Below are positions 3,671 through 30,327 of a stretch of DNA of 32,000 bases, one piece after another. The translations under genes and the position numbers were made by a program. Location of the stretch: assembly GCA_016196885.1 (NCBI GenBank), contig JACPWU010000003.1, positions 73,052 through 105,051 on the forward strand, written 5' to 3'. Position 1 is the stretch's first letter, and every line of letters begins with the position of its first letter. The DNA is from Chlamydiota bacterium. GTDB lineage: Bacteria > Auribacterota > JACPWU01. The notes under the pieces were generated by a model. The model was given only the letters and a program-made list of their open reading frames with translations, did not search any database and was not told the origin of the DNA.

Positions 3671-3699
3671 AATGGACGACACTTTTCCCCAATCTTTTC

Positions 3700-4171: not shown

Positions 4172-7100
4172 ATGACAAGTTTCAATGTAAATTATGAAAA
4201 ATCCTTTCGGAAATTCGTTTCCACTCTCCTTTTAATCACTTTTTCATTTACGTATCTTGTTCAAGATACGGGATTTGCACAAGAACTCAATACAGCGTAT
4301 AGCGTTCAGCGGACAGCGGACAGAAAACCAGCGGATACGATTTCTCCTAAATCAGCTCTGCTTGAAGTTTCTCATGGTGCAGAGGTTTCCATCCCCGCAA
4401 ACTTAGGCGATGTCATTGACCGCTATGAAGGCAAAGACGACCGCATGATTATTCAGATTCAAGACGTGCACTGCCATTTCGAGGCCCAGTCTAATACCGC
4501 TAAAATTATTTCTGACCTTCTCCAGAAACATGGGGATCACGGTCTTAAGATGATCGGTCTTGAGGCGGCAGAGGGTTCTGTGGATACAACTCTTTTGACT
4601 TCCTATCCTGATAAAAAACTTCGAAAAGTCCTCGCCGAATACCTCATGAAAAAAGGAAAAATTTCCGGTGCTGAATATCTTTCTATCATTCAAGATAAAC
4701 CGCTTCCTCTTGAAGGCGTAGAAAACATGTTTCATTATTTTGAACATCTCTTCCAATTTGACCGAGGGTTGGATGTAAAAGACAAAGCCTTGCCCATTTT
4801 GGACAAAATAGAAAAGGCAATTACAGATCTGCGCGAAAAAATTTATTCCCAAGAAGTGTTGGAAGTTTTGAACAAAGAGAAGTCCTATTTGGAAGGGGAT
4901 ACTCAGATTGATGAGTATGGAAAATATTTGGTAGACCAGGCGTTAACTCTTAAGCTGGATGTTGGGGGGCAGAAAAATTTTCAAGGCATGATGAAAGTGG
5001 CAGATTTAGAAAAGCAAATAGATCTTAAAAAAGTAGAAGAGGAAAGAGTTCATGTCCTTGAGATTTTAAGCAGAAAGCTCGTGAAAGAAGAGATGGTAGA
5101 ACTGATGACGAAGAGTTTGTATTACAGACTCGAGAAAATGGATGCGTGGGAATATTATGAATATTTAAAGACTGTCGTGAGTCCCGCGGGGACTATAAAA
5201 ACATGTCGTGAGTCGTTAGGGGTGAGTGGTCAGAATTCAACGTTAGAGAAAACTTATCCCAACCTCTCAAAATATATCCAAATGACTGAAATATTTCACG
5301 AGATCAAGAGTGATGAGCTTTTGAAGGAATGTGAAAAGATATCAGAGGAAGTACAGGATAAGTTGTTAAAGACCAAAGAAGAAAAGGCGCTCAGGCAAAT
5401 TGAGAAAGACTTTATTATTTTGAGAAACTTTTTTGAATTGGAGATGAAGAAGAGTGAGTTTCAATATTATGTGGAGAATAAGGAGAGGGTTTCAGCAAAA
5501 AACATAGTGGATGGGTTGGAAGAAATCCAGGATCCAGGGTCCAGGGTCCAGGGTAACTCCCCTCGGTCCCCTCTTAAACTAAGAGGGGAGGAAAAACAAA
5601 AACAAGAGCAAACAAAGAGCGCTTTTCCTATTTTAAAAGGGGAGGAAAAGCAGAGATGGGTAACGTCCCCTCCCCTTAGTTTAAGGGGAGATGGAGGGGT
5701 TACAAATGACGACATCACATTCCTCGACTCTCATCTCAAAGACCTCGAACAATTCTATCGCTATTCAGACAATCGTGAAGAGGCGATGGTCCAGAACACG
5801 CTCCGGAAAATGAAAGAGAACGAGAGCCCGATTGCGATTCTATACGCGGGAGGATTTCATACGGATGGACTCACGAAGCGCTTGGAAGAAGAGGGCGTGT
5901 CTTATGTCGTTGTTGCTCCCAGAATCACACAATTCAAACTCAAGACCCCGTATTTATCTATTATCAAGAACGAGCCTTCGAAATTAGAGAAAATGTTGAT
6001 GGATTTGGAGAAGAAAGAAAAGGGGACGATGGCGACTCTACCGTTAGAGGGAGATCTAAAAACAGAAGTTGCTGCTCTCAGTGGTTTGGAGGCAGATGAT
6101 CCAGCACGAGTGAATGGAGAGGAAACGATTCGGCTTCAAATAGCAGCTCTTAGATCGGCTTTGATCGTACGTGGGCTGCTAAATTCCGATATTTCGGCAA
6201 ATGATATTACTTTCACTCGAGAAGGTGACACCGTCACTATTCTCATTTCTGGCATTCCCAGATTTCAAATCACCCTGAATTCTGAAAATAAAAATAATCC
6301 TGAAAAGTTGGTGGAGAGTATTGTGCCTATTGAAGTTTCTGCTCCGACTGAGCAAACATCGGAGTGGGTAGGTGGCCCTCTTCGTAGTTTGGACGGAAGT
6401 TATCAGGCGTTAGAGAGTGAGGAGATTAAGACGTTGAAAGGTCTTGCAAGCAAAAAAGGGGGATATGCGATTCCTTCCAGTACGGAAACGTTTGGTGATG
6501 ACGAGGTGGTTTGTCGCGTGGTGGATTATGATGAAAAGAAGGGAGACCCTGTTTATGATATTTTTCAGCCGCACAGTATCAAGGCCTACCATTATATGGC
6601 GGCAGCCGTTCCAAATTCTGAAAGACCAGGTTTAACAAGAATAGTGGTTTATGCGTTTCTCCCTCGTAGGCTTGACGAAAGGGAATACGCTTTTCGCAAG
6701 AGGCATGAAATTTTAGAATCGCTTTGGGAGTACAAGCTTAAAAAAGAGGGAATAGCCTACCGGAACCGCCTGGAAAAGAATCCTTCAACTCCTCAACCTC
6801 TCTGGATGCAATTAGGCCTTTCTCGGGATGTTGCGGCTCATATCCTCGCTTGGGGACAGCATGTTCTCGAAGAGGGTTGGGATAATATTGAACAGTGCCC
6901 CTTCTTGAAAGAAGAAATTCAAAAATTAAATCTTGCCCAACTTCAGGCCATTTATTCTGACGAAACCATTCAAGAGAGAAATCGCATTCATAATCCTTTG
7001 AGAAAACATTATCTTTCAGGTTTTAACGATGCCGATTGGCAGCGACTTGAGACCTTTGAAAATTCTGTGAGGGATTTGGCCAGAAGACTTACTTTTCCTT

Positions 7101-10100
7101 CAAAGTTGGTTCAGGATTTAGATAATCAGGGAAGGGGTCGAAAAGTTTTGTGTCTTGGAGCAGGTGGAGACTATCAAGAGGCAAATTTCTTTAGCTCCCG
7201 TAATTGTGGTGTGGAAGTGGTCAAAATGAGAGGGGACGCAGAAGGTGATGATAAAGACTTTGAGGTATATGAAGCAGAAACACAAGAAGCAGCCGAGGAA
7301 CGAATCATTAATGACATCTTAAGAAGGCTTCAATTGGATGAGGGGAAAAAATATGATGCCATTTATGCCCGTTTGAGTTTGCACCATTTGCCCCAGAAGT
7401 ATCTTTTGCGGGTGCTCAGAAAAATATCCGACATGCTCGAAGTGGGTGGAAAGTTCTATTGGGTTGTCAAATCCAAAGACGATGTTCTGTATCAAGGTCG
7501 GACTGGCGAACCTGGAGAGGACGGTTTGACTCCTTATAGAGATCAGCCCTCAGGACAGGAGCTGAAGAGAAGGTTTTTTACGCCTGATGAAATGAAAGCA
7601 TTGTTAGAAGCGAAAGACGATGCTGAGAAAACCATTTTTGGATTTGAAGTATCTACAATCAATCCTCGTTTTGAACGCTTGACCAGAAGAACAGCGCCCA
7701 TCACACAGGACAATCATGAATCAAGTTTGTTGGAAGTAGTGGCGGAAAAGAAAGAGGATGTAGCCCTTGCTTTGGATGTTCCTGCCCGAGTGGTGCGTGT
7801 GGGGGCCAAGCTGTTTGACGGTGAAACAGGGGCACAACCGATCGAGCCAGATGTTCGCCCGAGCATAAAAGGAGATGTTGTGGATGTAACAGAGCTGTCA
7901 GATGAGGAAGGACTGACGGATGAAGCGGTAGGCGCTCGTTCTGTCATGGCTGGAGAGGGTTGTCTTTCTATACTGGCAGCAGGGGGGAGTTCGCGCATGG
8001 CCATTGCCAAAATGCCAGAGCGTTATAAGAAGGATATTGGTGATGCTGATATAAATTCAAAGGCATTGGTTCCACTTGGAAGTTATAGAGCAAGGACGAT
8101 AACCTATTTCGGTGCATTTTTTTATAACATAAAGAGATTGTTTGAGGGTCTTCAGAAAGAAGCGGAAGGGACAAATATAGAAAATCATTTGGAGGATAAT
8201 GACATTATGTATCTTACAAATGACACATACGCCCAAGAGCAGGCAAAACATTTAAGGCAAAATGAAAGTTTTGGACTGCAACAAAGAATTTATTCTTATG
8301 TTCAGCCCTGGGTCAATAAAATTTATGCCCCGCCTGACCAGATAGGACCGCTCAGGAAGAATTTGAATAACGAAAAATTTGATGCAGCCAAGAAAAGATC
8401 CGAGGAGATTCAAGCCGCTTTTGACAATGGCGATGAAAAAGCGGTGGTGCATAAAGAAAAAGGTCCTTGGGGTCATGGGGAATACTTGCATCAGATGGTG
8501 GTCAGCGGCCGTTTGCTCGATATGTTGGAAAAGAATAAAAAATGGATTTATGTGAGAAATATAGACAATAGCGGAGCTAAATTTGACCGGGTTTGGTTGC
8601 GTGCCTTGGGTCTGTTCCTGAAAAAGGGTGTGGGTTTTATGCCGGAGGTATCACCTCGATCCCCTGGACAAAAGGGGGGGGGATTGCTTGTGGTTGGTGG
8701 TAGGCAGGGGATTGGTGAGGACGCGATTATTGCGGCTACGGCCAAGGCAAAAAATGATTCAACTCTTACCGCAGAAAATTGCTATTGGTTTAACAATGGG
8801 GCCGGATTCATGACGCCCTCATTTGTAGCGAGTTTGTATATGAGTGAGGGGCAGACGATTGATGCGTTTATCCAGGAGCTTCAAGATGCGAACGGGGATG
8901 TGGAAAAATTAGAGGCGGTTGCAGAGAGGGGGAGGGGTAAATTCCTAAAACTATTTGACGTCAAGCCAACTAAAAATGGAGAAGGGGCGGCTCCATTAGA
9001 AACGAATCTATGGACTTCATCCATTGTGGCTCCCGTAGATCAATTGGTTGAAGCGGTCGGGGTTCGCGGAGTGCGTGCGTTGATAGAAAACGAAGGGATG
9101 TTGTTAGCTTATTTTGCCTTATCGTGGGAAGATAAAATAAAGGTTTTAGAAAAAATTCGATTTTTTTCTGCGAAACAATGGGAACTCCCCGAGGAGACTG
9201 TAGAGAAAAATAGACGTCAACTGGAAGAGAATTATAACGAAGCCCTTCGAGCAAAATGGGGGCAAGAAAAGGTCAACAATCCTGATTTAATGCAACCGCC
9301 TCGTCGAACTCTGACGAGGGAAGAGGCCCTGTTGGTATCAGAGACGTACGAGGGAAATTTGCAAGTCGCTACAGATATGCTTCGATACATATATGAGGCC
9401 CCGTTGGTCACGCCGGGGGTTTTTAGAGAGGCTTTATCAGCGGCTGAAGCAGGTGCTTCAGTCAGTCCTAATTCAAACGTTTTTGCTGAAGTCAAAAATT
9501 TATTGGTTCTAGCTTTAACCGCAGCAGCTTTGTTTGTGGCACCAGGCCCACAGGCAAGGGCGGCTCTGCCTTCTGTGGAACCTATAAAATCAGCGCTGGT
9601 TCAGAAAGACGGGGGCCAGCGGCCAGCGGCCAGGGAAACACATTTAACTTTAGCTCAGTTGATTGAAAGAGAAGGGGGGGCTTTAGCGGATTTGAGGCGG
9701 ACACGGCATGCGGTCTATACCGTCATGGCCAAGACGCCTCAAGAAATGAAGACAATGGATGAACAGGTTGAGAGAGGTGAAGCCAGTCAACTCCGAGAAG
9801 GGGTTTATACAATTTATGGATATACTCCAAGTCAAGAAGGGGTGTTAAAGGCTCGTGTTGCCCGAGGAGAGGCGAGTGTAGAGTATCGGACGGTTTCGAA
9901 TCCGCCTGTGTTGAGTCAAGCTGATCAGGCGCTTGCCCGTAGTGTCGAAGGGCATCTTGCAACGCATCGTCTTTATGAAGCGGACCCAGCTTTCAGAGAA
10001 GAAGTGGGTCGAATTTGGAAATCCCTTTCTAGGCAAGATCGACAGATTTTTGCGGAGCTTCTCTTTGTGCGAAGAGGGGATCGTAGTGCGAAGACAGATG

Positions 10101-13100
10101 CAGTCATATCTGAATTTGCTGCTGCCTTGGCGAATCCAGATTATTTAATGGATAGATTTAAACAATTTGCTTATGCGAGCAGTAAGGCGGCTGGGAAAGT
10201 TAAGGGACTAATTTTTGAATTTAAAGGAAGTCCAACACCTGAAAAATCCGCGGGTCTTTATCTGAGAGACCGAAGTGATCGGGAGAATGAATGGGGCTTT
10301 CGAATGAAAGTAGAAACTTTAGCCGCGAGAGTTGCTGCTGCTCAAACAGCGGCTCAAGGTCGAGCGGGGGTTAAAGTAGCCGAAGTAAAGCCTTTCGACT
10401 GGTTAAAACCTGTGATTGAAGGAAAGAAATATGATGCCGTTGGCGCAGGGCTTCTTGAAAATGGGGCTCAAAATAATGCAAGTGTCTTGGTCAATGGTCT
10501 TCGCAACTTCGTCATGGGAGGGTGGCTTATCGGAATCATTTTTATAGGGGCGCTCACTAGACTTTTGAAAGCCATGCGTCCTTCAAAACCTTTACTGGGG
10601 TCTGAAACCTTGGATTCCCGCTTATCCCGACAAGGGGCTGCTTCGCTGAAGCCTGCGGGAATGACAAATGTTGGTGCAAGCAGTCCTGTTATCCCCGGAT
10701 CCCCACTTCCTGTCATCCCCGAAATAGATGGATCCCCGATTATAGATTTCGGGGACGGATCCAGTCCAGCATCTGTTTCTCAAGTAGCTGAAGTCCGTCC
10801 CGTTGTTGAAGTTGTTCGTGTTAATTCCAGCCGTTCTTCCGGTAGACGTTCTAGGAGCAATGTGATTATTGAGTTGATATATGAATCTGGGCTAGGTTTA
10901 CATTGGGGCACGACTCTGTATCTGGTTGAAACACGGCTTGAAAGAAGGATGCGAGAATTCCAAGAAAGCCAAGGAATGACGGAACTGGCTTTTGCGCAAG
11001 CTATTCAGGGAATGGAAAAATGGCAAGTCAAGTGGATAGGACGCCTCTTTTCAATTTCAGATGTGTATCGCCTGTTCACGTCCGAAAATAGAGCAGCTCT
11101 ATCAAGTTGGGTGACGGAAAAAAAGTTTGGTACAGATGAAGGTGTTTCAGCGTATGTTCAAAAAATGCAGGGCATGAAGAAGGAAAAGCAAAGGATTCGA
11201 GCCGTTCGATCCAGTTTGCCAGCAGGCTTGGCTGGCATGGTTGAAAGGGTTGTAGTTGCTGAAGGACGAGGCGGTCGAAATAGCATTGGCCCTTGCGTAT
11301 ATATTAAATTAAGAGCGGGTCTTTTTGAATCTTATTGGATGGTGATCGGAAATAATCTTGGAAATTTAAGCCCTTATCTTCATCGTTTGGGTTCTCAAAA
11401 GACAAGGGCTTATCGCTTGCAAGGGCGAGATCTTGGATTAGGCCAATTCGGAGATTACATAACCTTCTTTAAAGAACCTGGGTTATTCGAAAGAGTGAGA
11501 GATTTTGCTCGGGATTTGTTGCTGAAATTAGATTTATCCACATCTGACCCCACTGTTGCAGGTCGGGCGGCTCAGCTTGCCGGCACAGCCGCCATCGCCT
11601 TTCTCTATGGCGCAACGCAGTCGGGATGTTCAAGGCAAGAGGACGATGTAAATCTTGAATCTTTAGATGCCTCGCAATTGACCAATTTTGGTGGCGTCAA
11701 CGTTGCGCAATATGACGATCCCAGTGGTGTTTTTAGAGTGCTTGAAGAAGAAACTCCTGAAGGTGAAATGCCACAATCGGGCAGTATAAATTCCCATCTT
11801 TTTGGGACAGGGTTATATGAATATGAAACAGATCATCCAGATTTATTTGCGTCTCCTCATGCTGTAATGCAAGCGAGGATTGGTGTTATTGACCTGGATT
11901 CGTCAAAGGAAGATGCAGGTTATGGAACGACTGAAGATGAGGCAATAAGCGGTGGAGGGTCTGCGGGAATGTATTTCAATTTTCAAGACAATTCGTTAGA
12001 TCAATTAGAGGCTGGGGGATACAAAATCTATATTGCCTTTTCAGCAGATGGAAGTCTAACTCACGACGAAGTCGTTCTTAAAGTTGAATTAACGGATAAA
12101 TATGGTGACACCGTAAAACGGGATGTTAAAACAGGATATATTTATTTAAGCAACGTCAATTCTGGACTGCAGGGCGCATGGATTGATTTGAGAGAAGCCA
12201 GAGATTCTGATGGGAATTTACTGGATTGGGAGCCTTCGGACACTGCGCGAATAGGTGGAGTGGATGGTGTGCAGGTGGATGTTTTTTTAGGATCTATTAA
12301 TTTTGCTACTGTGTCTAGCGCTCAGAAAGGGATCGTTATCCGCTGGATTGGAATTGATAAGAGTCCAATCAATCTTATTTACCCTATAGAAGGAAGTTCT
12401 GCGGCTGATTTAAGCATTATTGATGGAGTGAATGAACCTAGCGTTGGTCCCAACTTAACTTGGGATGAGAAGGGAAGAGCGACTCAAGAGTGGGCTGTTC
12501 ATTTTTTTGATAGCGATTCAAGTGATGCAGCAAAATACTATGAATGGGAGATCCCTGAAGATAAAAAGACCTATGATCCGAATGGAACAACCGTTTTTGA
12601 AGTTGAAAGTTCTGAGCTTGCAAGTTTCAATGTTGAGGTGAAGGAGTATCAGAGAGATGCGGACGGAAATATTTTAACGTCTACGGACGAGGATGGAACA
12701 GTAAAGCCTCTGCTTCTTCAAAGCACTGTCTTAAACACTCAAGAGATCATGAATGGGAAGTTGGGTTGGTCTTCAGCCAATCCTCGTGTGATCATTGATC
12801 ATCGTTATCTAGACCATCGAGGTTTAAAATATTGGGATGCGATTACATTGGTTGTTAAGAAAAACCAAACGACTCAGAACTCTATTACAGTCAATATCCG
12901 CGGCATACTTTCTGAGGATCTTTTTCCGATTCAATACAACCTCACAGAGGACACAGGTGAGGGGGATGAATATACGGTTGACAATAATTATGAAATTGCA
13001 CCCATTGGAACAGAGGTCACAGTTAGAAGTGTTGTGACTGACCAGTATCCTCATGGAAGTCACACCCTCACTCGAGAAATGATCATGGAAGGAATTATCA

Positions 13101-17723: not shown

Positions 17724-17762
17724 AAGGTAGATATTTATTAACTCCCCCAACCCCTCTTGTTC

Positions 17763-17809
17763 TGTAGTCGCCCCATTTATGGGGCTGCCCGATAAATCGG
17801 GCGACTACA
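17763..17809 (+). repeat. REPIN-like palindromic element, copy B
   Basis: TGTAGTCGCCCCATTTATGGGGC-t-GCCCGATAAATCGGGCGACTACA lies 40 nt after the gene 1 stop and is followed by AAAAA. About 30 nt of the downstream flank also resembles the flank of copy C. Confidence 0.9.
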
Positions 17810-17848
17810 AAAAAGCATAATGGGGAGAGCTTTCATCACTGGTTTTTC

Positions 17849-18002: not shown

Positions 18003-18132
18003 CGGAGGGGTTAGATTTTTTTTCATTTTTCCCTTGCTTTTCTCTCCCAGAAACTTAAGAATCTTCTCAGTTTCTTTTTCCTTATCCAAAGCAACCGGAC
18101 ATTTTCTAGCACAACCTGTGAAGGGGGTAGCG

Positions 18133-18621
18133 ATGAATGTCACCCTGCAAGTTGGAGCGAAGAAGGCGAGACGACCCCATCCCTGGTTTTTTGATGTTGA
18201 AATTCATCGAGTCCCTTTCCCCTACGTCTTGGTCAGACTGCGAGGCAAGTTTACCTCCTCCAAAGAGCTTAAAATTATTTTCTATGAAACCCTAGACAAA
18301 GCGACTCAAGAAGGGGAAAGAATGGTCTTTGATTTTGAGATGGTGGACTATGCCTCGAGTCTATTCCTGAGGGATTTACGAAATTGGTGTAAGGCTCAAA
18401 ATGAAGGGGCTGGTCTCATCTGTTCGACGCGCGTTCCCTTTTTTCTTAAGGATGTGATGAAGAGTCTTGAATTCTATAGAGAGGTCAAAGAACTCCCCTA
18501 CGAAAGAAATCGCTGGACCCCGGACATGTTTACGAAACCCACAGCACTCTACATGGTTATGGATGTTTTAAAGCGCTTTCTTATGATTAAAGATGGGGAC
18601 TCCAAGCCCTATCTACCTTGA
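18133..18621 (+). CDS. Small STAS-domain-like protein (anti-sigma-antagonist fold, tentative)
   Basis: AAGGGGG lies 5 nt upstream of ATG 18133. YVLVRLRGKFTSSKELKIIF...GERMVFDFEMVDYASSLFLRDLRNW...GLICSTRVPFFLKDVMKSLEF fits the STAS pattern (v.l.G.l......l; vv.D...V.fidSs.l..L; l......v...l...gl..f). Confidence 0.5.
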   Translation: MNVTLQVGAKKARRPHPWFFDVEIHRVPFPYVLVRLRGKFTSSKELKIIFYETLDKATQEGERMVFDFEMVDYASSLFLRDLRNWCKAQNEGAGLICSTRVPFFLKDVMKSLEFYREVKELPYERNRWTPDMFTKPTALYMVMDVLKRFLMIKDGDSKPYLP

Positions 18622-18800
18622 CAGCGAGTGGAAGGACTTTTTTTGGGATTTTTCTCTCATTCCCCAAAAACCTCTCTTTTTTAAATTTCTTTTTTACCTT
18701 TTAACCTTTCAAAGGGTCTTCCTCCTTGGCTCTTCGGATACTTTCTTCACTGAGAAAGTTCTCAATTTAACTTCAATTTAGACTGTCAACGGGGGGAGAC

Positions 18801-21800: not shown

Positions 21801-24800
21801 ACCATTCCTTCGTTTCAAGGAGAATCCTGGACTGTTGAGAAAATTCGAACTGAATCTTGGACGGGGGCCATTCCTCAAGAAGTGGTTGAGGCTTCCAAAA
21901 ATGCAAATACGGTTCAAGAGCTCAAGGCTTGGTTTGAAGCAAATCCCCAATTTAAAAAATGGGCAAAGGTGGTTATTCAGCCCGATGAATTGACAGGGCC
22001 CGGAGACGGCTTAAACAAGGTTGCCTATGCCCTCAATGGAGTTAAGGGAAGCGATGGAAAAGCACATCCTCCAAGGCATTGGATGGTTGATTTTGAAGAT
22101 GCCTTGAAATTGAGAGATGTAATTAAAGGGGTTTATTTTACAACACAGGCCTTAAACGAACACCCTGACTTTTTGGAGGAGGAAACTAAAAAGGGTTACG
22201 GGCATCATCCGAAAAATTATCCCTTGGTGATTGCCCGTCCGTCAGGGGTCCATTTAGATGCGGCGGAACTCATGGTGGATGGAGAAAGTGCCTCTGCCAC
22301 TGTTGTGGCTGTCGTGAGTTATTTGGTGAATAATTATCAGGCATTAACCGAGTTAGGACAAGATCCCTTTTTATATTTACCCAAGATCAACAGTGTGAAA
22401 GACGCTTATTTATGGGACAAAATCCTGTCTTTGGCTGAGGATGAAATGAATCTTCCTCGCGGGACCGTTAAGACTCAGATGTTGGTTGAGCGTGTTTATG
22501 CCATGGCGGAGCTTGAAGAAATTATGTGGGTGCTTCGTCATCGAATGATCGCCATTAACGTCGGTCGTTATGATTATGCCAATAGCTGGGAACAGGCGAT
22601 GCAGGGCCAGTCAGATGTCATTTCTCCAGACTGGAAGCAAATGACCATGGACAAGGCCTTTTTGCGTAACTATGTCGAGCGAGTGGGCAAACTTGCTGCC
22701 AAGCACAGCATTCTTTTCATTGGAGGAATGGCGCAGCAAATTCCTGAAAAAAATGAAGCAGCTAATCAGCGTGCCATGGCCAAGGTCAAGGCGGATAAAT
22801 TGACTTATGAATATCCTTATGGAGTGAGCGGTGCCTGGATGGCACATCCCGGAATGGTTGAAACCTTACAAGCCGCATCTCAAGAAGGAATGCATGGAAA
22901 ACCCAATCAATTGGGTCTTGAGCGGGGTCCTGTGACCTATACACCCGAAGATTTGGCGGGGCTTTTAGAGCCTCATCCAGGGGTTTTGACAGAAGAAGGT
23001 ATTCGGGCCCAAATCAATATGAAGCTTCAATATGTGGCTTCCTATCTTTCAACCGGGGCGGCGGTTGCCGTGTATGATGCGGGTCAAGAGCTTAAATTGA
23101 TGCAGGATAGAGCCACCGATGAGACTGCTTATAATAAACTTTGGGCGGCCATGCATAAGCTTAAGGCGACTTTGCAAGACGGTCGTCATCTTAATCCTGA
23201 ACTTTTTGATCAACTGCTAGCGGATGAATTACGTAAGGTGAAGGCTGGAGAAAACAGTGCTGTTTCTTCGACCTATTACGATGTTGTAGCAGAGGTTTTA
23301 TCGAGGGTGGTGAAGTTTGACACGGTTATTCCCTGGTTTACAGATATTTTGCATTTGGTTGACCAGCTCAAGGATGAAAAGGGAGTGATCGATTCCGAAG
23401 TGGCTCGTCGGGCGATTGATACTTATTTAAATGTCTATAAATCCACAGGTCGAAGACTCACCCGTCCGGATCTAGGCGTTTTCTTTAGAACATGGAAGGG
23501 GGAGAGTCGTAGTGATGTGGTTGCGAGAGTTCAATCGGGAACCTGGAAGCCGGAAATTTTGGAAATTTATGATTATGTCCATGGGGTTCCTGTAAGCTCT
23601 CACATTCGCTCTATTCTCGAACAAATGAATCGTTCTCTCGCAGATGAATCTACAAATCTCAGCGATGCTGAGCGGCGTTTTGTTGAGCTTAGGGCGTGGG
23701 TTCGGGACGGAGTGGTTTTAGAGAATGGCCGTAAATTGGACGAGGATTTATTGTTGGATCTTTTTGACGAAGAAATATCGAAGATTAGAAAACAAAATCC
23801 TGAAGCTTACGCGAAAACAAGATATCCTGCTATTGCTCTTATCTTAGAGCAGGCGTTGACAGCGGAATATCAGATTCCTTCCCTGGGTAAGGTTTTAGAA
23901 GTTATCAGGGACTATAAAGATTTCGAGCAGGCGAGACCTCGTATTAGACAAGTTTTTCTCCATTATTCACTTCAGCATCAGATCGAGCAAGAAGAGATTA
24001 GACGCAATGATTCTCGCTTTAAAGGAATCAATCGTCTTGATTCAGCTCAAGATGTTGTGGGAGAAAGGGGAACCGTCCGGAATCTATATCATAGAGTCAA
24101 TACGCTTTCCGGAAGGCTTTTTGATCTTCTTAAGACGGCTTTGGAACGTGGTGAATCAGTTTCGACCTATGAAACCTCAACGGTTCCTCAGCTGATTGAG
24201 CAAGGGGTAGAACTCCCTGTGGCCTATGTGGGAGATACCCAGAGATCACAAGATCCCATTGTGAGACGCGTGAGTCGCTTTGCAAAGGCGCAAGAACTCC
24301 ATGATCGAAAAGATTTGGTCGCTTCCTATGAGAAAACAGGGGTTGCTAACATGAGTGGAAATCGTTTTCGCCCGATTATTGCGAGTGCAGATTTAGAGCA
24401 GCCTGATAAATCCAGTCATATCAATGTCCGAAAAAGAGTTCGTGAGCTGGTTCAGGCGGGTGCATCGGGTGTCAAATTAAGCAATCATTCTTACGATCAC
24501 AGTGAGTATGTCGAGGGGCATGTGCTGCTTTCCACAGAGGATTTTGTGGGGCGATTGAATACGGCTCGAAATACGGCGGATATTTTAGGGGTTTCGACTG
24601 TTCTGATGGCTTCCATTGACACAGAAGACGCCACGCTGATTGAAAGCATGGATGACAAGACCGATCAGCCCTTTATCTTAGGCGTCACTGGCAGGGGTGT
24701 AACATCATTAAAGGCATTTATTATAGAAAAGAAGCGCGAGGCAATGGGAACGGGAAGTTCTCTGTCTCGTCAGGATTGGATTAATTTAACCAGCGAGTGG

Positions 24801-27800
24801 AAAGCTCAGGCCGGTTTGATGACGTATTATGAAGCTGTGGAACGAGCTATTCTCATCGCCCGTCGCTATGAAAATAATGAGGATGGACGAGGAAATGCTT
24901 TGGCAGCGTGGCGTGAAATGCGTCATGCGCCACTTGCCGCTGCAAAAGCGAAGGCCAAAGAACTGGGATTTGGGGATGTGAGATGGAATGCTGAAAATGC
25001 AAGAACGCCTGAAAATTATTATCAAGTGAAGGGCGGGGTTGATATGGCCATTGCCATTGCGAAGAAGTCTAGTGATTTTTCGGATATTCTTCTAAGAAAT
25101 GGAGGCAAAAAAGATCTCGCAGAGACTGTGTCTGAGGCCAAGCAGTTTGCTGATGAGGTGAATACGGAGGGTTCAGAGCGCAAAATTCTCGCTTTTAGTT
25201 GGCCCTTGTCCACTGAGGTTGCGGGTCTTACACCAGAAGAGCTGACCCGTATTCCTGAGCAATTGGGCCAGTTTGGTTATGCGCTTCAATTAGTCCCCGA
25301 GGCAGGACCAGTAGGAGAGGCGCTTGCGATTAAAGCTTTTTCTCACCAATATGCCAAACCTGAGCGGCAAATGGAGGCTTATACATCGGATGTGCAACAT
25401 GAAGAGCTTAAGGCGGGCGCTCCCATGGTTGAACATCAGGGCTGGTCTGGGGCGGATCTCGTTGATTATGTTATGAAAGCCATCACAGGAGGAACCACTT
25501 CGACCGGGATTGTTCAGCAGGGATCAACCATTGATCAATTTAGTAAAAAAGCTTCCCCTGAAACTTTAACCGAAGCCACCGGTGCGCTCAGCGACGTTTT
25601 AGCTCATGCCTCGACCCCAACAGAAACTCAAGATCCAGAATTTCAAGAACGCGTGCGTAAGATTGAAGAGAAATTTGCACGTGATAAAGAAAAGAATGGG
25701 ATTGAGAGACCTTATTCGGCCGAGACCGTCGCGGTTTTGCAAGGGACGCTGCCCGATGATTATTCGCGGTCTCAACAGGTTGCAACAAAACTTCGCAGAA
25801 TGTTCAAGCGTCATCAGGAAGAAGGGACCCTTTCCAGTACCTTTGGCGCTCTGGATGGAAATCAAATTGAAACAATGGTGATGTTTCTTACATCGATTTA
25901 TGTCAGCGGCTGGCAGGCTTCTTCTACCGCTGGAAGCAATTTAGAAGGCGGACCTGATATTGCGGATTATCCCTATGATACGCTCCCCAATAAGGTGAGA
26001 GAGCTCATGGATGCGCTGATCGAAGGAGATCAAAAACAGGTTGAGCGCTATTTAAGTGAAGTAAAAGGTGTTTTTGACGAGGGTCAGAAATTACGGATCC
26101 CTTTACCTTTAAAAGATTATCCCTTCTTGCCCTTTTTTGTAGATTTTTTTGCTCCCATCATTGCGGATGCGGACACGGGACATGGGGGACTTACCGCTGT
26201 GATGAAATTAACCAAAATGTTTGTTGAAGCGGGGGCTGCTGCCATTCATATTGAGGATCAAAAGGCGGGAACCAAAAAATGCGGGCATATGGGTGGCAAA
26301 GTCGGGGTGGCCCTCCAAGAGCATGAGGATCGCTTGGTTGCTGTTCAATTAATAGCGGATATGATGGGTGTGGACTTGGTGATTGTGGCAAGGACAGACA
26401 TGGAAGCCGCAAAACTTCTGGACACCAATATTCATCCCTCAGATCATGCCTTTATTACAGGAACGACCAATGAAGAATTAGAAAGCTTAAATGACGTTAT
26501 TAAAAGAGCTCAAGAAGAAGGCAAGACCCCCAAACAGCTGGAGGAGATTACAAAGGCTTGGCTCAAAGAAGCCAATTTGGTCACTTACGCTGATGCTGTA
26601 GAAGCGATCGTAAGCAAAAACGGCATAAGTCCAATTGATTCAGATGCCCTTGAGCTGTGGAGAGCGGTGAATCATCCTCTTGAAGAAGTGAGTGTAGAGG
26701 TTGCTGAAAAAATAGCTCAAAAGCTTGGGTTCGATCTTGTGAAATTTATCGAAACGAATCCTCAAAGGGATCCTTCTTATCTTAATGCCTTACAAAATGC
26801 AGTTCGCGATTTTCTCAAGACACAATCCGGAAAAGAAAACCTGCTCAGTTTTTGGAATGCCATCCATGACCGCACGAGAGGTTTAAGCTGGGATGCGGCA
26901 AAAGCTTTTGCCAATGTCTTAGGCTATGATCCAAAGTGGAGTGCAGAAAAGCCCAGAACACGAGAGGGTTTTTATCAATTGAATGCGAAGCGGGAAAAAT
27001 ATGGCATTCGATATGGCATCATGATGAGCATTGTTCGTCTCTGGCATTATGCCCCTAGAGCCCATGTGCTTTGGGTTGAGACGGGTAATCCAGATGTAAA
27101 AGATGCTGCTACTATTGCAAAATATGTCCATAAGAAATTCCCAAAAAAATGGCTTGCCTATAACTGTTCCCCGTCATTTGTTTGGAGTAATTTTATGACC
27201 CCCGACGAGATTGCTCAGTTTCAGAGAAAATTGGGTGAGCTTGGCTATGTTTGGGTTTTTATCACCCTTGCTGGAATCCATATCGATGCTTTTACGACCG
27301 ATCGTTTGGCAAAATTAACCCGTACAGGCGGTCCTCTGGCTTTGATCAAAGGGGTTTGGGATATGAAAGTCGAAGCTGAAGCCCCTCTTATTTTGTCAGC
27401 GCTACAACTGCTCTATGAGCAGCATTCTAAACGCTATCAGGAATTAGTGCAAAGGTTAAACGGAGGAAATGAGCCATTTTCAGAGGCTGCGACCATTTTC
27501 TTTAACCAAATAAGAATTATTGATGGGAAAGGGTCTATCCATCCCTATCTTCTCGACTTTCTGAAAGGGGCAGTAACAAGTGAAGGGCCACGCTTTCCAA
27601 AAGAAAGGACTGTTGCAGGAGAACAAACCGGTAAAGGTTCATCCCCCTTCCAGGGCGAAGTGAATCGCGAGCATAGGAGTAAAGCGACAGACCAAAATTA
27701 TTATGCTGAGACGTCTAGAAGGAATGGGGTTACTTCACGGACAGAAGTTGAACAAGCGATAAGGACGGATACAAATTCTGAGAAAGTTAATCTTTCTTTG

Positions 27801-30236
27801 ACAGAGACAGCGGGTGAAATAAGGATGGTCTTTGACAGTAAATTTTCCGGATCCATGGGGAGCGGAAATGTTGGAAGAGCTCTTCAATCTGCTCTTGATT
27901 TGATGGATCCTAGCTATCGTCAGACCATGGTGGGAGCTTTGGATGCGTGGACAACCGATGAAAGTCCAATGGTTTTTGCTGCGTTCGATCAATCACGAAA
28001 TCTTGCCGAGAACCACCAGCGGGATCATTTTGGTGGAGTGAATATGGCGATCCCGAATATTCCACAGGATTTTGAAGGTTTAGAAGGATTCCCCTCCAGG
28101 GAGGTTTTAGAATCCATTCGCGACATTGCTTTCGCTGTCTCTGTTTTCCATGAACTGGGTCATGAAGCAGATGCAAATGCCCAAGAAGAGGAATTGACCG
28201 CAAGAGATGTTCAATTAACTTTCGCTCTTTTAAAGGCACGAGGGGTAACTCTTGAAGAGTATATTCAGGTGATGCGTAGAGTTGTTGCTCCACAGAGCCT
28301 CTACCTTGATGTATTGCATCCGCATAATGCATTGACTCAAGAGGAAGTAGAATCCGCGAATCGGTTGTTGAATCATTTATCTTCAGAAGCATTAAATATT
28401 CCAGAAAATTCCACGCTTGTAATCCTTGGGAATCCAGATCCTCAATTTCCAGGGCAGGCGGTTGAGGCAATACGTAAGCTCAATCCTTCTCGCATCATCA
28501 TTGTGGGAAAAGGGGGTGGAGATCGTCCTGAGTGGGAACGGATTCGAAACGCAATCCTTGAAATGGATCCCTTACTAGAGTCAAAGATTTTGACAGATTC
28601 TGGAGATGTTTCTATGAACACCGGTCAAAATGTATCATCGGTTGCTAAAATTTTTAAGGACAATTCGGGTTTATCTCCAAATGTTGTCCTTGTTGCATGG
28701 ACGGCGGGGGATCTTTTAGCCAGGCGTATTTTTGAGAAACAATGGGCTGAAAATGCTTCGAAACAGGATCTTTCAGGCGTTAATCCAACCTTTTATTCTT
28801 CACCTGTTCAAACCTCTTTTACCCTCACGGCCGGTGTACGTTTGAGTGAAACGGCTTTATCGTATCTTGAACGTGCCACGGGTCAAATTGGGCGTTTGGG
28901 AAGTTGGGGAGGTACGTTTATTAATCAACATGATGGAGATTTGCCAGCCAGTATTTTGGAAGATGCTCGGGTGGTTCAAGCCGCCTTGAATCGCATTACT
29001 CCGAAAGAAAAAATTCAGATGTCAGCGGCAGTTGGAAAAAAGGTTGAGCCTACTCGTTCATGGGTTAATGTAGATGGTTTCGAGGAGTGGATGAAGCTTT
29101 CGAAGAAAGCTGTATTGCAAGATCTTTCCAAAAGTCAGGATATGGCTCAAGTTTTTAGAGATTTGGGAAAGTATTTGGTGGAATATCGCGGGTCTTTCCC
29201 CATGACGGATGTTGAGTTTGATCGTTTGACCGATGAAGTGGGGGATCGCTTGGCGTTGGATAGAGATGAGGGAGCTAAAGAAGAGATTCGTGTCAATCTG
29301 GATGTGAGAACGATCCTTCAAGAGGCAGGACTTTCTCAAATGGTTCAAAATGTGGAGAGGGCTGTTCGGCGCGATGGTACTCCATTTCAATTGAATGAAG
29401 AGGTGGTCCTTGATTTAAGCTCCGAGATCCCGACGCTTTCACAATTAGGAGAAACAGGAAAGGTTGTAGCAAGAGAGTCCGTTAACGAGCTGCCTGATAG
29501 ATTGAGTTCCCCCAAGCAGATCACAATGCAGAACCCTCACTATTTTGCTCATGCCGTCGCTCATCTTGCATTGCAATCTAGATTGAGAGAGTCAGAGGAC
29601 AAATTGATCACGGGTGTTTCGGGTCGTAACGCGGTTTTAAAAAATGAAGTGGTTCTTCGACCCATTGACATAGAGCTTGTCAGGCAAGGGCAGCAAGGTC
29701 TGGGTTTGGGAGAAGTTGCGAAGAGACTGGGTTTAGGAAAGCCGATTGTAGTGGCTCATGACAAGAGTCAGGCTGATCTTGAGCAGGAATTGAAAGGGAT
29801 GGGCCTAAGTGATGTGTACGCTATTTCTTTGGCAGGGGTAGAGGAAGGTCAAAGAGGTGAAGCATTGACCCAAAGGGTAGGAGAGATATACAGCCAGAAT
29901 TTTCGGGCACAAAATAACGATCAGCCTTTTAATCCAGCCCAAAATATGATGTTTCTATGTCACGAGGGGAATAGAAGTATTTATGAACCTAGTTTACCCA
30001 CAAATGTTCCTGTTCGTTATGCAAGAATTTTATGGGTCGCCATTATTGCAACTTCATGTGATCCACAAAAAGTAATGGCCGCCTTGAGAGAAATGGGCAT
30101 TGATCCGACACCTTTCCAAGGATCTTTACAAGATATAGACACAAAGAGCATCAAGCCTATTTCCCTCTTTGAATCTTTAAGTGAACGTGACGCCAGAATT
30201 AAGAGGGCCGCTCACTTGAGAGAGACGAGCATGTAA
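18801..30236 (+). CDS. Giant multidomain membrane protein 2 (head domain, 4-TM block, malate synthase, degenerate ICL, ICL, HExxH, DUF218-like, tail)
   Basis: 3,811-codon ORF. GGGGGAG lies 2 nt upstream of ATG 18801. The N-terminus is signal-peptide-like: MYKIVQKITSILLCLSFFSYDVSSSFAQE. Confidence 0.9.
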   Translation: MYKIVQKITSILLCLSFFSYDVSSSFAQETHLLNPITSAQGGKALVNSSLSLESVLEDLKIPYDFGEVIEKSAIPNRPLVFLIEDVHCHSEVQLNIRRILNTLLRANLSMNSHAKLNVLLEAAEGPMDMSFFTAFPDKEVLKIAQDQFLKNNDVTGVESFLMTEGASQAQGVGIEDLSSYVNNVRLMGELIQENEVHQADWQNLDEVFGKLREKIYSKDLLEFVQKKSDYENLELDVNDYEAYLSSVYQKTFQKNAGEENPTLGSLEKLRKLEVGFDENALRQEYLSYLKILEKNLSKDELTKVLRNVLEYRLGRESDQDHYLFLSQYFERVKGQSHGDYNNMESGVKEYRNLESMFSQMLIMKELSWERLEAELLAVENKLMETLAGSANEKALLSLEKDHGILKRIVAFEGKREDIKTAFSVQRSADRKDNSGFVENLVQRLKSVTQENHLSFSSPDFGKTFSLAKKFYQQVLDRDRIFLDKALKEIKERKLSNAALVVGGFHTSGLKEAFKKAHVGYWVIAPRYTQHDDRSAYFKKMKEQFGFLGGSSDELATMPWDTLVNVARTHAVLLLPERVGQTLVQIYQDLHEGQLPDFQGWEAAVPALADAIAEIERRVVAGEHVANPATEPLTPERLQTITGLSASQIQTLLSPNSSDAETVTTANVILRYLGTLMERNGYEREGWRGLVEVEEEGREGPPSSTEESSKGRLSLLKGSDIFEYTLGFFESVGITFTILALASIVALVLVASSPVIPNPVARLPVFLFMELLGSYFISQKLWIWGHKSMPRIYVRMKINHGSAFADKWFWRFNVERDWDVPFIRQKETKGMEAKEVKDLFNTLKDAVASGARISRLERTAKIVWQISFGVSFFLAIAQYLTTHDATMDATISWAGIPFMIAFIIVHLATSIASPPRGRLSLLAGSPSQGGAAGEVPSNGVTLVDPEIKKYSDILSPEVLAMTAKIDRATRDERKVRKEEEEARIAGIRRGEQGVKFLDPSETIPSFQGESWTVEKIRTESWTGAIPQEVVEASKNANTVQELKAWFEANPQFKKWAKVVIQPDELTGPGDGLNKVAYALNGVKGSDGKAHPPRHWMVDFEDALKLRDVIKGVYFTTQALNEHPDFLEEETKKGYGHHPKNYPLVIARPSGVHLDAAELMVDGESASATVVAVVSYLVNNYQALTELGQDPFLYLPKINSVKDAYLWDKILSLAEDEMNLPRGTVKTQMLVERVYAMAELEEIMWVLRHRMIAINVGRYDYANSWEQAMQGQSDVISPDWKQMTMDKAFLRNYVERVGKLAAKHSILFIGGMAQQIPEKNEAANQRAMAKVKADKLTYEYPYGVSGAWMAHPGMVETLQAASQEGMHGKPNQLGLERGPVTYTPEDLAGLLEPHPGVLTEEGIRAQINMKLQYVASYLSTGAAVAVYDAGQELKLMQDRATDETAYNKLWAAMHKLKATLQDGRHLNPELFDQLLADELRKVKAGENSAVSSTYYDVVAEVLSRVVKFDTVIPWFTDILHLVDQLKDEKGVIDSEVARRAIDTYLNVYKSTGRRLTRPDLGVFFRTWKGESRSDVVARVQSGTWKPEILEIYDYVHGVPVSSHIRSILEQMNRSLADESTNLSDAERRFVELRAWVRDGVVLENGRKLDEDLLLDLFDEEISKIRKQNPEAYAKTRYPAIALILEQALTAEYQIPSLGKVLEVIRDYKDFEQARPRIRQVFLHYSLQHQIEQEEIRRNDSRFKGINRLDSAQDVVGERGTVRNLYHRVNTLSGRLFDLLKTALERGESVSTYETSTVPQLIEQGVELPVAYVGDTQRSQDPIVRRVSRFAKAQELHDRKDLVASYEKTGVANMSGNRFRPIIASADLEQPDKSSHINVRKRVRELVQAGASGVKLSNHSYDHSEYVEGHVLLSTEDFVGRLNTARNTADILGVSTVLMASIDTEDATLIESMDDKTDQPFILGVTGRGVTSLKAFIIEKKREAMGTGSSLSRQDWINLTSEWKAQAGLMTYYEAVERAILIARRYENNEDGRGNALAAWREMRHAPLAAAKAKAKELGFGDVRWNAENARTPENYYQVKGGVDMAIAIAKKSSDFSDILLRNGGKKDLAETVSEAKQFADEVNTEGSERKILAFSWPLSTEVAGLTPEELTRIPEQLGQFGYALQLVPEAGPVGEALAIKAFSHQYAKPERQMEAYTSDVQHEELKAGAPMVEHQGWSGADLVDYVMKAITGGTTSTGIVQQGSTIDQFSKKASPETLTEATGALSDVLAHASTPTETQDPEFQERVRKIEEKFARDKEKNGIERPYSAETVAVLQGTLPDDYSRSQQVATKLRRMFKRHQEEGTLSSTFGALDGNQIETMVMFLTSIYVSGWQASSTAGSNLEGGPDIADYPYDTLPNKVRELMDALIEGDQKQVERYLSEVKGVFDEGQKLRIPLPLKDYPFLPFFVDFFAPIIADADTGHGGLTAVMKLTKMFVEAGAAAIHIEDQKAGTKKCGHMGGKVGVALQEHEDRLVAVQLIADMMGVDLVIVARTDMEAAKLLDTNIHPSDHAFITGTTNEELESLNDVIKRAQEEGKTPKQLEEITKAWLKEANLVTYADAVEAIVSKNGISPIDSDALELWRAVNHPLEEVSVEVAEKIAQKLGFDLVKFIETNPQRDPSYLNALQNAVRDFLKTQSGKENLLSFWNAIHDRTRGLSWDAAKAFANVLGYDPKWSAEKPRTREGFYQLNAKREKYGIRYGIMMSIVRLWHYAPRAHVLWVETGNPDVKDAATIAKYVHKKFPKKWLAYNCSPSFVWSNFMTPDEIAQFQRKLGELGYVWVFITLAGIHIDAFTTDRLAKLTRTGGPLALIKGVWDMKVEAEAPLILSALQLLYEQHSKRYQELVQRLNGGNEPFSEAATIFFNQIRIIDGKGSIHPYLLDFLKGAVTSEGPRFPKERTVAGEQTGKGSSPFQGEVNREHRSKATDQNYYAETSRRNGVTSRTEVEQAIRTDTNSEKVNLSLTETAGEIRMVFDSKFSGSMGSGNVGRALQSALDLMDPSYRQTMVGALDAWTTDESPMVFAAFDQSRNLAENHQRDHFGGVNMAIPNIPQDFEGLEGFPSREVLESIRDIAFAVSVFHELGHEADANAQEEELTARDVQLTFALLKARGVTLEEYIQVMRRVVAPQSLYLDVLHPHNALTQEEVESANRLLNHLSSEALNIPENSTLVILGNPDPQFPGQAVEAIRKLNPSRIIIVGKGGGDRPEWERIRNAILEMDPLLESKILTDSGDVSMNTGQNVSSVAKIFKDNSGLSPNVVLVAWTAGDLLARRIFEKQWAENASKQDLSGVNPTFYSSPVQTSFTLTAGVRLSETALSYLERATGQIGRLGSWGGTFINQHDGDLPASILEDARVVQAALNRITPKEKIQMSAAVGKKVEPTRSWVNVDGFEEWMKLSKKAVLQDLSKSQDMAQVFRDLGKYLVEYRGSFPMTDVEFDRLTDEVGDRLALDRDEGAKEEIRVNLDVRTILQEAGLSQMVQNVERAVRRDGTPFQLNEEVVLDLSSEIPTLSQLGETGKVVARESVNELPDRLSSPKQITMQNPHYFAHAVAHLALQSRLRESEDKLITGVSGRNAVLKNEVVLRPIDIELVRQGQQGLGLGEVAKRLGLGKPIVVAHDKSQADLEQELKGMGLSDVYAISLAGVEEGQRGEALTQRVGEIYSQNFRAQNNDQPFNPAQNMMFLCHEGNRSIYEPSLPTNVPVRYARILWVAIIATSCDPQKVMAALREMGIDPTPFQGSLQDIDTKSIKPISLFESLSERDARIKRAAHLRETSM
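18970..20390 (+). other. Conserved 'head' domain, paralog of 4384-5935
   Basis: LIEDVHCH (about 19051-19070), LLEAAEG, KLREKIYSKDLLEFV, VGGFHTSGL (about 20304) and WVIAPRYTQ. Confidence 0.5.
20059..20086 (+). repeat. Heptanucleotide tandem repeat CAGCGTT x3 plus CAGCGGA in coding sequence
   Basis: CAGCGTT CAGCGTT CAGCGTT CAGCGGA, translated FSVQRSADR. Confidence 0.9.
20975..21540 (+). other. Block of about four transmembrane helices
   Basis: The hydrophobic runs are GITFTILALASIVALVLVASS, LPVFLFMELLGSYFI, IVWQISFGVSFFLAIAQYL and WAGIPFMIAFIIVHLATSIA. The block is flanked by KGRLSLLKGS and RGRLSLLAGS. Confidence 0.65.
21600..23450 (+). other. Malate synthase A-like module
   Basis: The family motifs occur in order: ELTGPGDG..K...ALNG, WMVDFEDA, IARPSGVHL (vRPRGWHL), PFLYLPKINS (yfYLPK.es), GTVKTQMLVERVYA (GTIKatvLIEt..A), INVGRYDY (lNcGRWDY), GAWMAHPG (G.WvAHP) and QDRATDETAYNKLW (EDaATaEIsR.Q.W). 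Boundaries are approximate. Confidence 0.8.
24010..25545 (+). other. Isocitrate-lyase-like module with a degenerate active site
   Basis: The ICL scaffold is present from the N-terminal RFKGINRLDSAQDV through FRPIIASAD to the C-terminal tail HQGWSGADLVDYV...GGTTSTG...GSTIDQF. However, TGHGG is replaced by LEQPD, HIEDQ by KLSNH, and KKCGH by YDHSEYVEGH. Confidence 0.65.
25690..27370 (+). other. Isocitrate lyase module (intact catalytic motifs, long eukaryote/ICL2-type insertion)
   Basis: ERPYSAETV, SIYVSGWQASST, ADYPYDTLPNKV, PIIADADTGHGG, AAAIHIEDQ, KKCGHMGGK (KKCGH at 26274-26288), VIVARTD, VLWVETG, LAYNCSPSF and VFITLAG. Confidence 0.85.
28149..28163 (+). other. HExxH motif (HELGH), possible zinc-metallopeptidase-like site
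   Basis: AFAVSVFHELGHEADA. This is motif level only; no third ligand was identified. Confidence 0.25.
28410..28800 (+). other. DUF218/YdcF(ElyC)-like module
   Basis: LVILGNP...IIIVGKGGG...PEWERIRN...SMNTGQNVSSV...VVLVAWTAGDLLARRIF parallels the DUF218 pattern (vvLG, i.sGG, E...m, S.nT.eNa, vilVTs..Hm.Ra...f). Confidence 0.4.
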
Positions 30237-30327
30237 CATAACCCCTCCAACTCCCCTTTGAACTAACCCTAAAGGGCTATAAAATCTTGAGGGGAGAGTA
30301 AAAAGAAGGAAAAACTAATGTGTCTTC

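Follow-up and report, generated by a model that had tools for sequence, protein, structure and literature searches.

Can two very large genes that open alike and then carry quite different metabolic enzymes belong to one family, and where in the cell would their products work? The question is raised by a 32,000 nt stretch of contig JACPWU010000003.1 (assembly GCA_016196885.1, positions 73,052 to 105,051), here called the window and numbered from its first letter, in which gene 1 (4172-17723) and gene 2 (18801-30236) follow each other on the forward (+) strand, as do all the parts of these genes described below. Each polypeptide combines several unrelated enzyme families with a signal peptide and transmembrane segments. 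An initial annotation, made from the sequence alone, had taken the two for paralogous membrane proteins with a shared head and tail and exchangeable enzyme cargo. The reading favoured here, with a little better than even confidence, is that they are tandem paralogues in a very large family, as yet without a name, of giant modular proteins exported through Sec, in which the head would be a putative extracytoplasmic hydrolase acting on or with its own giant.

The heads (gene 1, 4409-5974; gene 2, 18972-20444) align over about 600 amino acids with 25% identity (BLASTP, E 9e-39), so that the paralogy initially proposed for their whole length holds in a pairwise alignment. This is the only significant similarity between the two proteins, and the interiors are, as had also been stated, unrelated. 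By this comparison the genes are shown to be tandem paralogues sharing the head. Both proteins start with a basic n-region and a short hydrophobic core and reach a cleavage-type site, G-F-A|Q-E in gene 1 (4172-4279) and S-F-A|Q-E in gene 2 (18801-18881), which is the signal-peptide-like start ending in FAQE that had been noticed before. With small residues at positions -3 and -1, these segments are predicted to be Sec signal peptides. The same N-terminal pattern is present across all of the head alignments, and the signal peptides of the family follow the -3/-1 rule. Over 64 aligned heads, eight residues are invariant (in gene 2 numbering D85, H87, Q93, E121, R477, G502, G503, and H505); the first head motif is QDxH and the C-terminal motif is GGxH. 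The boundaries of the gene 1 head rest on the BLASTP alignment with gene 2 and on these invariant residues. There is no model of the head in Pfam or NCBIfam, and neither heads nor tails match any family in these two databases at threshold.

Gene 2 is an intact open reading frame (ORF) of 3,811 amino acids, identical to MBI3265566.1 and annotated by NCBI as 'isocitrate lyase'. The description of gene 1 as one giant gene is correct only after repair, since as sequenced a 19 nt indel divides it into two ORFs that overlap and are read in different frames, 4112-14197 and 14049-17723, the first of which is NCBI entry MBI3265563.1, named 'UTP-glucose-1-phosphate uridylyltransferase'. The frame change is located between 14031 and 14060, and three-frame translation places the indel at 14041-14059, where CAACACGAGTGGAGGGGGT is followed by a second CAACACGA. 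When these 19 nt are removed there is a single stop-free ORF of 4,510 amino acids from the ATG at 4172. A partial protein from a sister metagenome-assembled genome (MAG), P0004 (MBI1883924.1), is about 98% identical to gene 1 over the 3,244 amino acids recovered and runs unbroken across the break site (..VAKGAN|TIVFKAPR). The fact that P0004 reads through, and that removal of the 19 nt restores the ORF, means that gene 1 is one gene, and that the break in it is either a true indel at strain level or a misassembly of a repeat region. The break falls between two copies of a repeat of about 170 amino acids (13514-14023 and 14193-14552), which match each other with E 2e-24 (phmmer), and the sister-MAG copy has a 55 amino acid deletion near the break.

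The fold of the head was approached through models of the gene 2 copy. The AlphaFold model of the whole head (pLDDT 81, pTM 0.71) has a small alpha/beta core, made of residues 66-174 and 496-525, which is split by about 320 residues of helices. A Foldseek search of the PDB with this whole model found nothing significant; its highest-probability match was ChaN, and EreC and HopBA1 were also among the weak matches. A core-only query was then modelled as a spliced construct, with residues 58-198 joined to 458-548 and an alignment of full-length relatives. This model (pLDDT 87, pTM 0.86) has as its first three matches in the PDB HopBA1 (5t09), ChaN (2g5g), and EreC (6xcs), with probabilities of 0.99, 0.99, and 0.94, and unrelated folds come after these at much lower probability. 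Against ChaN 2g5g, 226 of 232 columns are aligned (TM 0.48/0.44). The ChaN family PF04187, of the Tiki superfamily, is also matched below threshold by 22 of the 64 heads (best E 0.0088), with 12-14 bits where scores are listed against a cut-off of 27.7 bits, and the RD..GGFH element lies on profile positions 159-204 in every match whose alignment was inspected. Together, the models support a fold-level assignment of the head core to the Tiki/TraB/ChaN/erythromycin-esterase superfamily, and this is the superfamily that the initial annotation had guessed at from its motifs.

The signature of this superfamily is an N-terminal x-x-H, a Glu after the next strand, an Arg, and a C-terminal G-x-x-H, and the heads in the window are alike in this. 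The invariant His, Glu, Arg, and His would suggest that the head is an active hydrolase. Several superfamily members act outside the cytoplasm. ChaN and the Ere enzymes also have a helical domain inserted in the core, so that the head in full resembles a larger form of the ChaN/Ere architecture, an alpha/beta core of Tiki/ChaN/EreA type with a large helical insert. The head as a whole is some 500-550 amino acids long, of which the helical insert makes up about 300-320.

Two sequence features within the heads may be mentioned here. A 47 nt repeat, 81% identical between its copies at 4281-4327 and 20047-20093, encodes TA(Y/F)SVQR(T/S)ADRK at non-homologous sites, right after the signal peptide in gene 1 and in the helical insert of the head in gene 2. 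The gene 1 head also has an in-frame insert at 5560-5700, opposite a gap in all of the other heads, which is made of three G-rich palindromes, such as CCCCTCTTAAACTAAGAGGGG; a related 24 nt unit is found three times in tandem in the upstream ORF (518-591). The insert looks like a small palindromic element that is tolerated within coding sequence. The short G-rich palindrome motif shows no enrichment across the window as a whole.

The family to which these heads belong is much larger than the locus would suggest. In an exhaustive profile search, with clusters counted at 50% identity, there are 9,600 clusters at E ≤ 1e-3 and 6,339 at E ≤ 1e-30, against only three relatives found by a word-indexed protein search. 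Of those three, one comes from a 'Chlamydiae bacterium' MAG, and the others are standalone heads of 508 and 530 amino acids, which stop just past the GGFHT..APR motif. Family proteins are from about 360 to 5,568 amino acids long. The head occupies residues 1 to about 520 in the matches listed, and, with one exception, its start in the 150 best matches is no more than about 80 residues from the N-terminus. The cargo sampled in relatives includes GlmS-like SIS and hexapeptide transferases, PGM/PMM, CofD, a histidine kinase, or nothing recognisable, and a third head paralogue, MBI3266242.1, apparently from the same MAG as the window, carries a histidine kinase ATPase domain. The family proposed, in which the head is kept and the enzyme cargo is exchanged, is therefore real, and far larger, with more varied cargo, than two neighbouring genes could reveal.

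With each GTDB species represented by one genome, a pattern scan confirmed 243 head loci. The best 80 of these are nearly all in Omnitrophota MAGs or in MAGs automatically labelled 'uncultured Planctomycetia' or PVC (Planctomycetes-Verrucomicrobia-Chlamydiae), and several of the genomes among these 80 hold more than one head locus. Candidatus Omnitrophota is also among the source names of the family matches. The MAG of the window is labelled 'Chlamydiae/Chlamydiota bacterium' by NCBI; the window has no phylogenetic marker, and the relatives of its proteins are almost all from Omnitrophota MAGs. The head family is typical of Omnitrophota-type PVC bacteria. Tandem arrays are the rule, because, of the 48 loci where the upstream sequence is long enough, 34 have another same-strand ORF of at least 1,000 amino acids whose end lies under 1.5 kb upstream of the head gene.

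The arrangement of head and body is not the same in all loci, and the variants bear on whether the body is exported. In four of them (L001, L046, L057, and L071) a gene of its own encodes the head, complete with signal peptide, and within a few bases it is followed by a giant ORF that likewise has a clear signal peptide. The fused protein P0007 is colinear with the giant of L001, its residue 555 falling onto residue 58, with 40-44% identity. This colinearity places the split exactly at the end of the head and means that the body has gained a new signal peptide. That the split-off bodies have their own signal peptides suggests that the giant body, with its cytoplasmic-type enzyme domains, is probably exported like the head. 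Of the 107 relatives of at least 1,500 amino acids, 104 carry an N-terminal hydrophobic segment.

Three other loci have interrupted forms. Head and body are parted by a single in-frame TAG in L036 (~11461) and overlap in different frames in L040 (6849-6897), while in L058 (~3940) a stop interrupts the head; in all three the downstream part has no signal peptide. These breaks could be sequencing errors, pseudogenes, or recoding.

The tails fared differently from the heads. The last 140-165 residues of the two proteins (17310-17720 and 29740-30233) had been described as related, and this similarity was not found by any of the methods used. Gene 1 and gene 2 tails give E ≥ 1.8 in BLASTP, with best alignments that differ from those first proposed; the last 260 residues score under the mean of 300 shuffles in a Smith-Waterman comparison (z = -0.6); and hhalign of the two tails against each other is negative. 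Comparison of the window tails with 119 family tails (phmmer) gave no relative, and comparison with hidden Markov models (HMMs) of the two tail classes of the family and of a unified 60 amino acid tail was also negative. Two JGI metagenome scans returned nothing for them, and a search of the word-indexed protein database also returned nothing, which is uninformative, as the query protein itself was missed. Both tails are thus orphan sequence, with no relative detected in these searches.

A conserved tail does exist in the family at large. An all-against-all comparison of the last 300 residues of members gave two large tail classes, with alignments that extend to the extreme C-terminus, and of 198 family tails, 137 fall under a single iterated HMM built on the last 60 residues. 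The consensus is ..lP.i.P.D..e..eay.arrkvLwSl, that is LPxxxP and a helix, and the order is a strand, LPxxxP(D), an amphipathic helix, and a C-terminus in ..(S/A)A, as for example in L035 2-6832, L025 3-7949, and L081 2-9616. The giant ORF beside the standalone head in L001 scores 15.8 bits against this HMM. The tail looks like a C-terminal sorting or recognition signal, to judge from its sequence. The idea of conserved ends is hence sound for the family generally, but it is not demonstrable for the two members in the window, whose tails may have been lost or have diverged beyond recognition.

The enzyme cargo of both genes had been called correctly. In gene 1, the region 7106-7609 is like an S-adenosylmethionine (SAM)-dependent methyltransferase, although the matches (Pfam Methyltransf_12/23/11/25, E 8e-5 to 2e-3) are weak and below thresholds. 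It is followed at 8450-8872 by a module of the UTP-glucose-1-phosphate uridylyltransferase family (UDPGP, PF01704, E 5.6e-10 and 4.9e-11, above the gathering score). Two hydrophobic, transmembrane-like segments (9479-10567; residues 1770-1790 and 2112-2132) flank a loop of about 320 amino acids. The beta-rich region (10619-16070), about 1,800 amino acids high in Thr, Ser, Gly, and Asp with a weak PKD_6 match, contains the repeat pair on either side of the frame break. A third hydrophobic segment (16092-16148) is followed by the Arg cluster RARVRRDGGG.

Gene 2 has a cluster of three to four hydrophobic, transmembrane-like segments after its head (20979-21533; residues 727-749, 759-783, 858-880, and 890-911), followed by a malate synthase module at 21888-23342 (Pfam MS_TIM-barrel, E 3e-52, and MS_C; PDB 3cuz, E ~1e-65). 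This module keeps the acidic residues aligned to the LIETL, GRWDY, and MEDAAT positions of Escherichia coli MSA. A second fragment like the malate synthase C-terminus lies at 23685-23867. Next come two isocitrate lyase (ICL) modules. ICL-1 (24006-25541) has a full-length isocitrate lyase fold, covering PF00463 positions 10-526 (E 8.5e-63), and is 31% identical to ICL-2. Its EDQ..KKCGH stretch is absent, with SNHSYDHSE in place, and because of this loss ICL-1 is probably a pseudoenzyme, fused beside an intact copy. ICL-2 (25680-27440) is a full-length isocitrate lyase (E 2.5e-141) with the KKCGH motif intact at residue 2492, and the nearest solved structures to it are fungal isocitrate lyases.

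The HExxH module that follows (27873-28340, HELGHE at residue 3117) is shared with Omnitrophota giant ORFs in L035, L025, and L081 (tblastn E 4e-6 to 2e-4), which have the family tail at their end and are directly upstream of the next head gene. A module like DUF218 at 28416-28742 is weak and below threshold (PF02698, E 0.0024-0.0038). A BLAST self-comparison for internal repeats found none at E < 1e-3; both ICL copies and the beta-rich repeat pair were detected through Pfam, local alignment, or phmmer.

On the favoured reading, the head would be a functional hydrolase located beyond the cytoplasm, where it would act on its own giant polypeptide, or jointly with it, in maturation, processing, or anchoring, and it may do so in cis, where it is fused, or in trans, where it is a separate upstream gene. 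The string of enzymes would be exported together with the head, and new members would arise when the head is kept and the cargo swapped. Maturation or processing is the best guess for the head because of its strict genomic coupling to giants and because the superfamily has protein-cleaving members (Tiki, RRSP; PMC6254334). In a bolder version, which we consider improbable, the head and the LPxxxP-helix tail would form a self-contained sorting and processing system not recognised before, in which the Tiki-fold hydrolase recognises and processes the fused or adjacent giant after Sec export. Omnitrophota-type bacteria would in this way place active metabolic enzymes beyond their own cytoplasm, either in the envelope or inside cells of prey or host.

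A number of observations weigh against the favoured reading. The Foldseek E-values of the core, 7e-3 to 2e-2, are modest, and they come from a spliced construct, the best of the queries; no Pfam match of the heads reaches the gathering score, and PDB sequence-profile searches with head alignments of 17 and 64 sequences found nothing. The superfamily includes ChaN, a haem binder, so that hydrolase activity is not guaranteed by membership. The family tail is absent from both window proteins (gene 1 -0.6 bits, gene 2 -0.1 bits), with 63 of 200 and 54 of 200 shuffles, respectively, scoring at least as well against the HMM. The window proteins are also atypical in having internal transmembrane segments, as 77 of the 107 relatives have none that is strongly hydrophobic beyond the N-terminus; the segments of the window proteins are those of a Kyte-Doolittle scan. 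In gene 2, a K/R-rich loop at residues 784-859 would fit a topology of three transmembrane segments, which would leave the head outside and keep the glyoxylate-cycle enzymes cytoplasmic. The substrates of the cargo enzymes, among them acetyl-CoA, UTP, and SAM, are found in the cytoplasm, which makes an extracytoplasmic site puzzling.

These last points would be accounted for if the segments only anchor a cytoplasmic metabolon to the membrane, with modules on the cytoplasmic face that carry out ordinary metabolism as fused, channelled pathways, for gene 1 the synthesis of UDP-sugars and for gene 2 the glyoxylate shunt. By the positive-inside rule, three real transmembrane segments would put the gene 2 cargo inside, where acetyl-CoA, isocitrate, UTP, and SAM are all to be found. 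The KKCGH motif kept in ICL-2 and the acidic residues kept in the malate synthase also speak for working enzymes of this kind, and fusions of malate synthase and isocitrate lyase are known in nematodes and Euglena. Against such an arrangement, the signal peptides look cleavable, with a short core and small residues at -3 and -1, and in gene 1 there is no hydrophobic segment between the head and the methyltransferase and UDPGP modules, so that these would be in the same compartment as the head. Nor would it explain why the body gains its own signal peptide once the head splits off, or why most relatives have no transmembrane segment past the signal peptide. A tethered metabolon is possible but doubtful.

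That the body appears to be exported, and that a conserved head and, in most relatives, a conserved tail enclose variable cargo, would also be expected of effectors delivered by a predatory or parasitic cell as weapons or manipulators, with conserved ends for secretion or processing and cargo that acts in or on the host or prey, as MARTX or polymorphic toxins do. Omnitrophota have been reported as predatory or host-dependent, an action on prey has been suggested for their giant proteins, and Tiki-fold domains do occur as effectors, in HopBA1 and in RRSP of MARTX toxins (PMC6254334). The likeness to polymorphic effector families that the initial annotation drew is nevertheless not borne out in detail: the cargo is internal and not at the C-terminal tip, it consists of housekeeping-type enzymes with no toxin domain detected in Pfam and PDB sequence searches, and there is no immunity gene after either gene 1 or gene 2 and no secretion-system gene within the window. 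The Pfam scans of the window found no toxin, immunity, RTX, Rhs, or CPD domains, and CdiA repeats were likewise not found. The internal transmembrane segments of both window genes argue for retention in the membrane of the producer, and delivery as effectors is unlikely.

It is very improbable that the giant ORFs are merely assembly chimeras or functionless pseudogenes, as the frameshifting indel in the gene 1 repeat region and the deletion nearby in the sister-MAG copy might suggest. Gene 2 is an uninterrupted ORF of 11.4 kb, the independent MAG reads through the break in gene 1, the head-first architecture recurs in thousands of independent assemblies, and GC skew and composition are even across both genes.

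The DNA around the giants carries several further elements. A REP-like (repetitive extragenic palindromic) double hairpin of about 50 nt (GTAGTCGCCCCATTTATGGGGCTGCCCGATAAATCGGGCGACTAC and then an A-run) is present just 3' of both giants (17763-17811 and 30388-30436), with an inverted copy upstream of gene 1 (3614-3672); folded as RNA it has -31.9 kcal/mol (z = -4.7). A 20 nt C-rich box, TAACTCCCCCAACCCCTCTT, follows both stop codons (17739-17758 and 30239-30258) and is also found at 496-515. The hairpin and the box may represent a terminator, a REP element, or a site of recombination. Direct repeats of 77 nt, 97% identical and 745 nt apart (1906-1982 and 2651-2727), flank a DUF5615 gene (2218-2637), with a weaker third copy at 3698-3757. 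This would suggest cassette insertion or duplication between giant genes.

The first copy of the 77 nt repeat covers the last codons of an ORF of 661 amino acids (3-1988), which has hydrophobic segments and acidic low-complexity stretches and matches no database family. Because its frame is open to the edge of the window, this ORF is probably the C-terminal end of a larger gene that extends further upstream. Immediately before gene 1, at 2810-3549, is a pair of genes with a 4 nt overlap, an MNT-type nucleotidyltransferase and a HEPN protein, like a toxin-antitoxin pair. Downstream of the giants are an unannotated ORF of 225 amino acids, between the genes, and, after gene 2, an AAA_14/DUF4143 ATPase gene on the reverse strand (30616-31863, -). 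The start of the latter adjoins a match to the Rfam group II intron RF00029 (31862-31950, -), at exactly the gathering score (40 bits, E 1e-4). The 661 and 225 amino acid ORFs have no relatives in the fetched loci or in the family set, and no family tail.

The giant proteins of Omnitrophota are a recognised puzzle, said to be little conserved and difficult to sort into families. A conserved N-terminal domain that can be assigned by structure is a handle that gathers thousands of giants into one family, and it makes several ideas testable, namely that the head is a protease or esterase, that the giants are processed, and that isocitrate lyase and malate synthase are exported. If the cargo is indeed outside the cytoplasm, the metabolism and host dependence of these ultra-small bacteria would read differently from their genomes, and annotations of the 'isocitrate lyase' type on such proteins should then not be counted as ordinary pathway genes.

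Among known systems, the Tiki, TraB-PrgY-GumN, ChaN (PF04187), and erythromycin esterase superfamily (2g5g, 6xcs, 5t09) is alike in having an alpha/beta core split by a helical insert. The family head differs in having no significant sequence match to it, in a first motif of Q-D-x-H and not G-x-x-H, in an insert of about 300 amino acids with a PAH-like element, and in being welded to a giant or encoded directly upstream of one. With MARTX and polymorphic toxins the family shares conserved terminal regions, exchangeable modules, paralogues that swap cargo, and possibly a built-in processing domain, whereas the cargo in the window is metabolic, immunity genes and dedicated secretion genes are not found nearby, and a Sec signal peptide takes the place of type I, type V, or type VI secretion-system (T1SS, T5SS, or T6SS) signals. 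The glyoxylate-cycle fusions of nematodes and Euglena likewise have malate synthase and isocitrate lyase on one polypeptide, and ICL-2 is of the long, eukaryote-like type; gene 2 differs from them in its 3,811 amino acids with a signal peptide, transmembrane segments, an extra dead isocitrate lyase, an HExxH module, and a Tiki-fold head.

The closest likeness is to the giants already described from Omnitrophota. Proteins with a signal peptide, transmembrane segments, and mixed enzymes make up a 'multi-enzyme metabolic' class (bioRxiv 10.64898/2026.06.07.730766) and the Archaeovorins (bioRxiv 10.1101/2023.11.21.568195), and gigantic multi-domain Omnitrophota proteins are mentioned in PMC12419801. 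The literature, too, finds the extracytoplasmic prediction for the 'multi-enzyme metabolic' class puzzling. West-Roberts et al. report N-terminal regions of giants with no identifiable domains except C39 or S8 peptidases, and the lipocone paper finds polysaccharide-synthesis enzymes, kinases, and methylases in such giants and proposes prey-directed roles. The statement that no characterised system has this layout is for this reason too broad, as giant multi-enzyme Omnitrophota proteins are in the preprints, yet none of these mentions the head, and a whole-word full-text literature search found no paper that pairs Omnitrophota with Tiki, EreA, or GumN.

The head family and the published giants are alike in their phylum-level distribution, in an N-terminal signal peptide with or without transmembrane segments, and in unrelated cytoplasmic-type enzymes on each polypeptide (sugar-nucleotide enzymes, methyltransferases, histidine kinases), with cargo that is unique in sequence. 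They differ in size, the published proteins being at least 10 kAA (thousand amino acids; 2026 preprint) or over 30 kAA (2023 preprint), against 4,510 and 3,811 amino acids here. The Tiki-fold head, the split form of head plus body, and the LPxxxP tail are in none of those studies. While the giant multi-enzyme proteins of Omnitrophota are thus already known as a general phenomenon, what is new here is a mid-sized family (2-5.5 kAA) defined by its head, with a fold assignment for that head, a conserved tail, and natural split forms.

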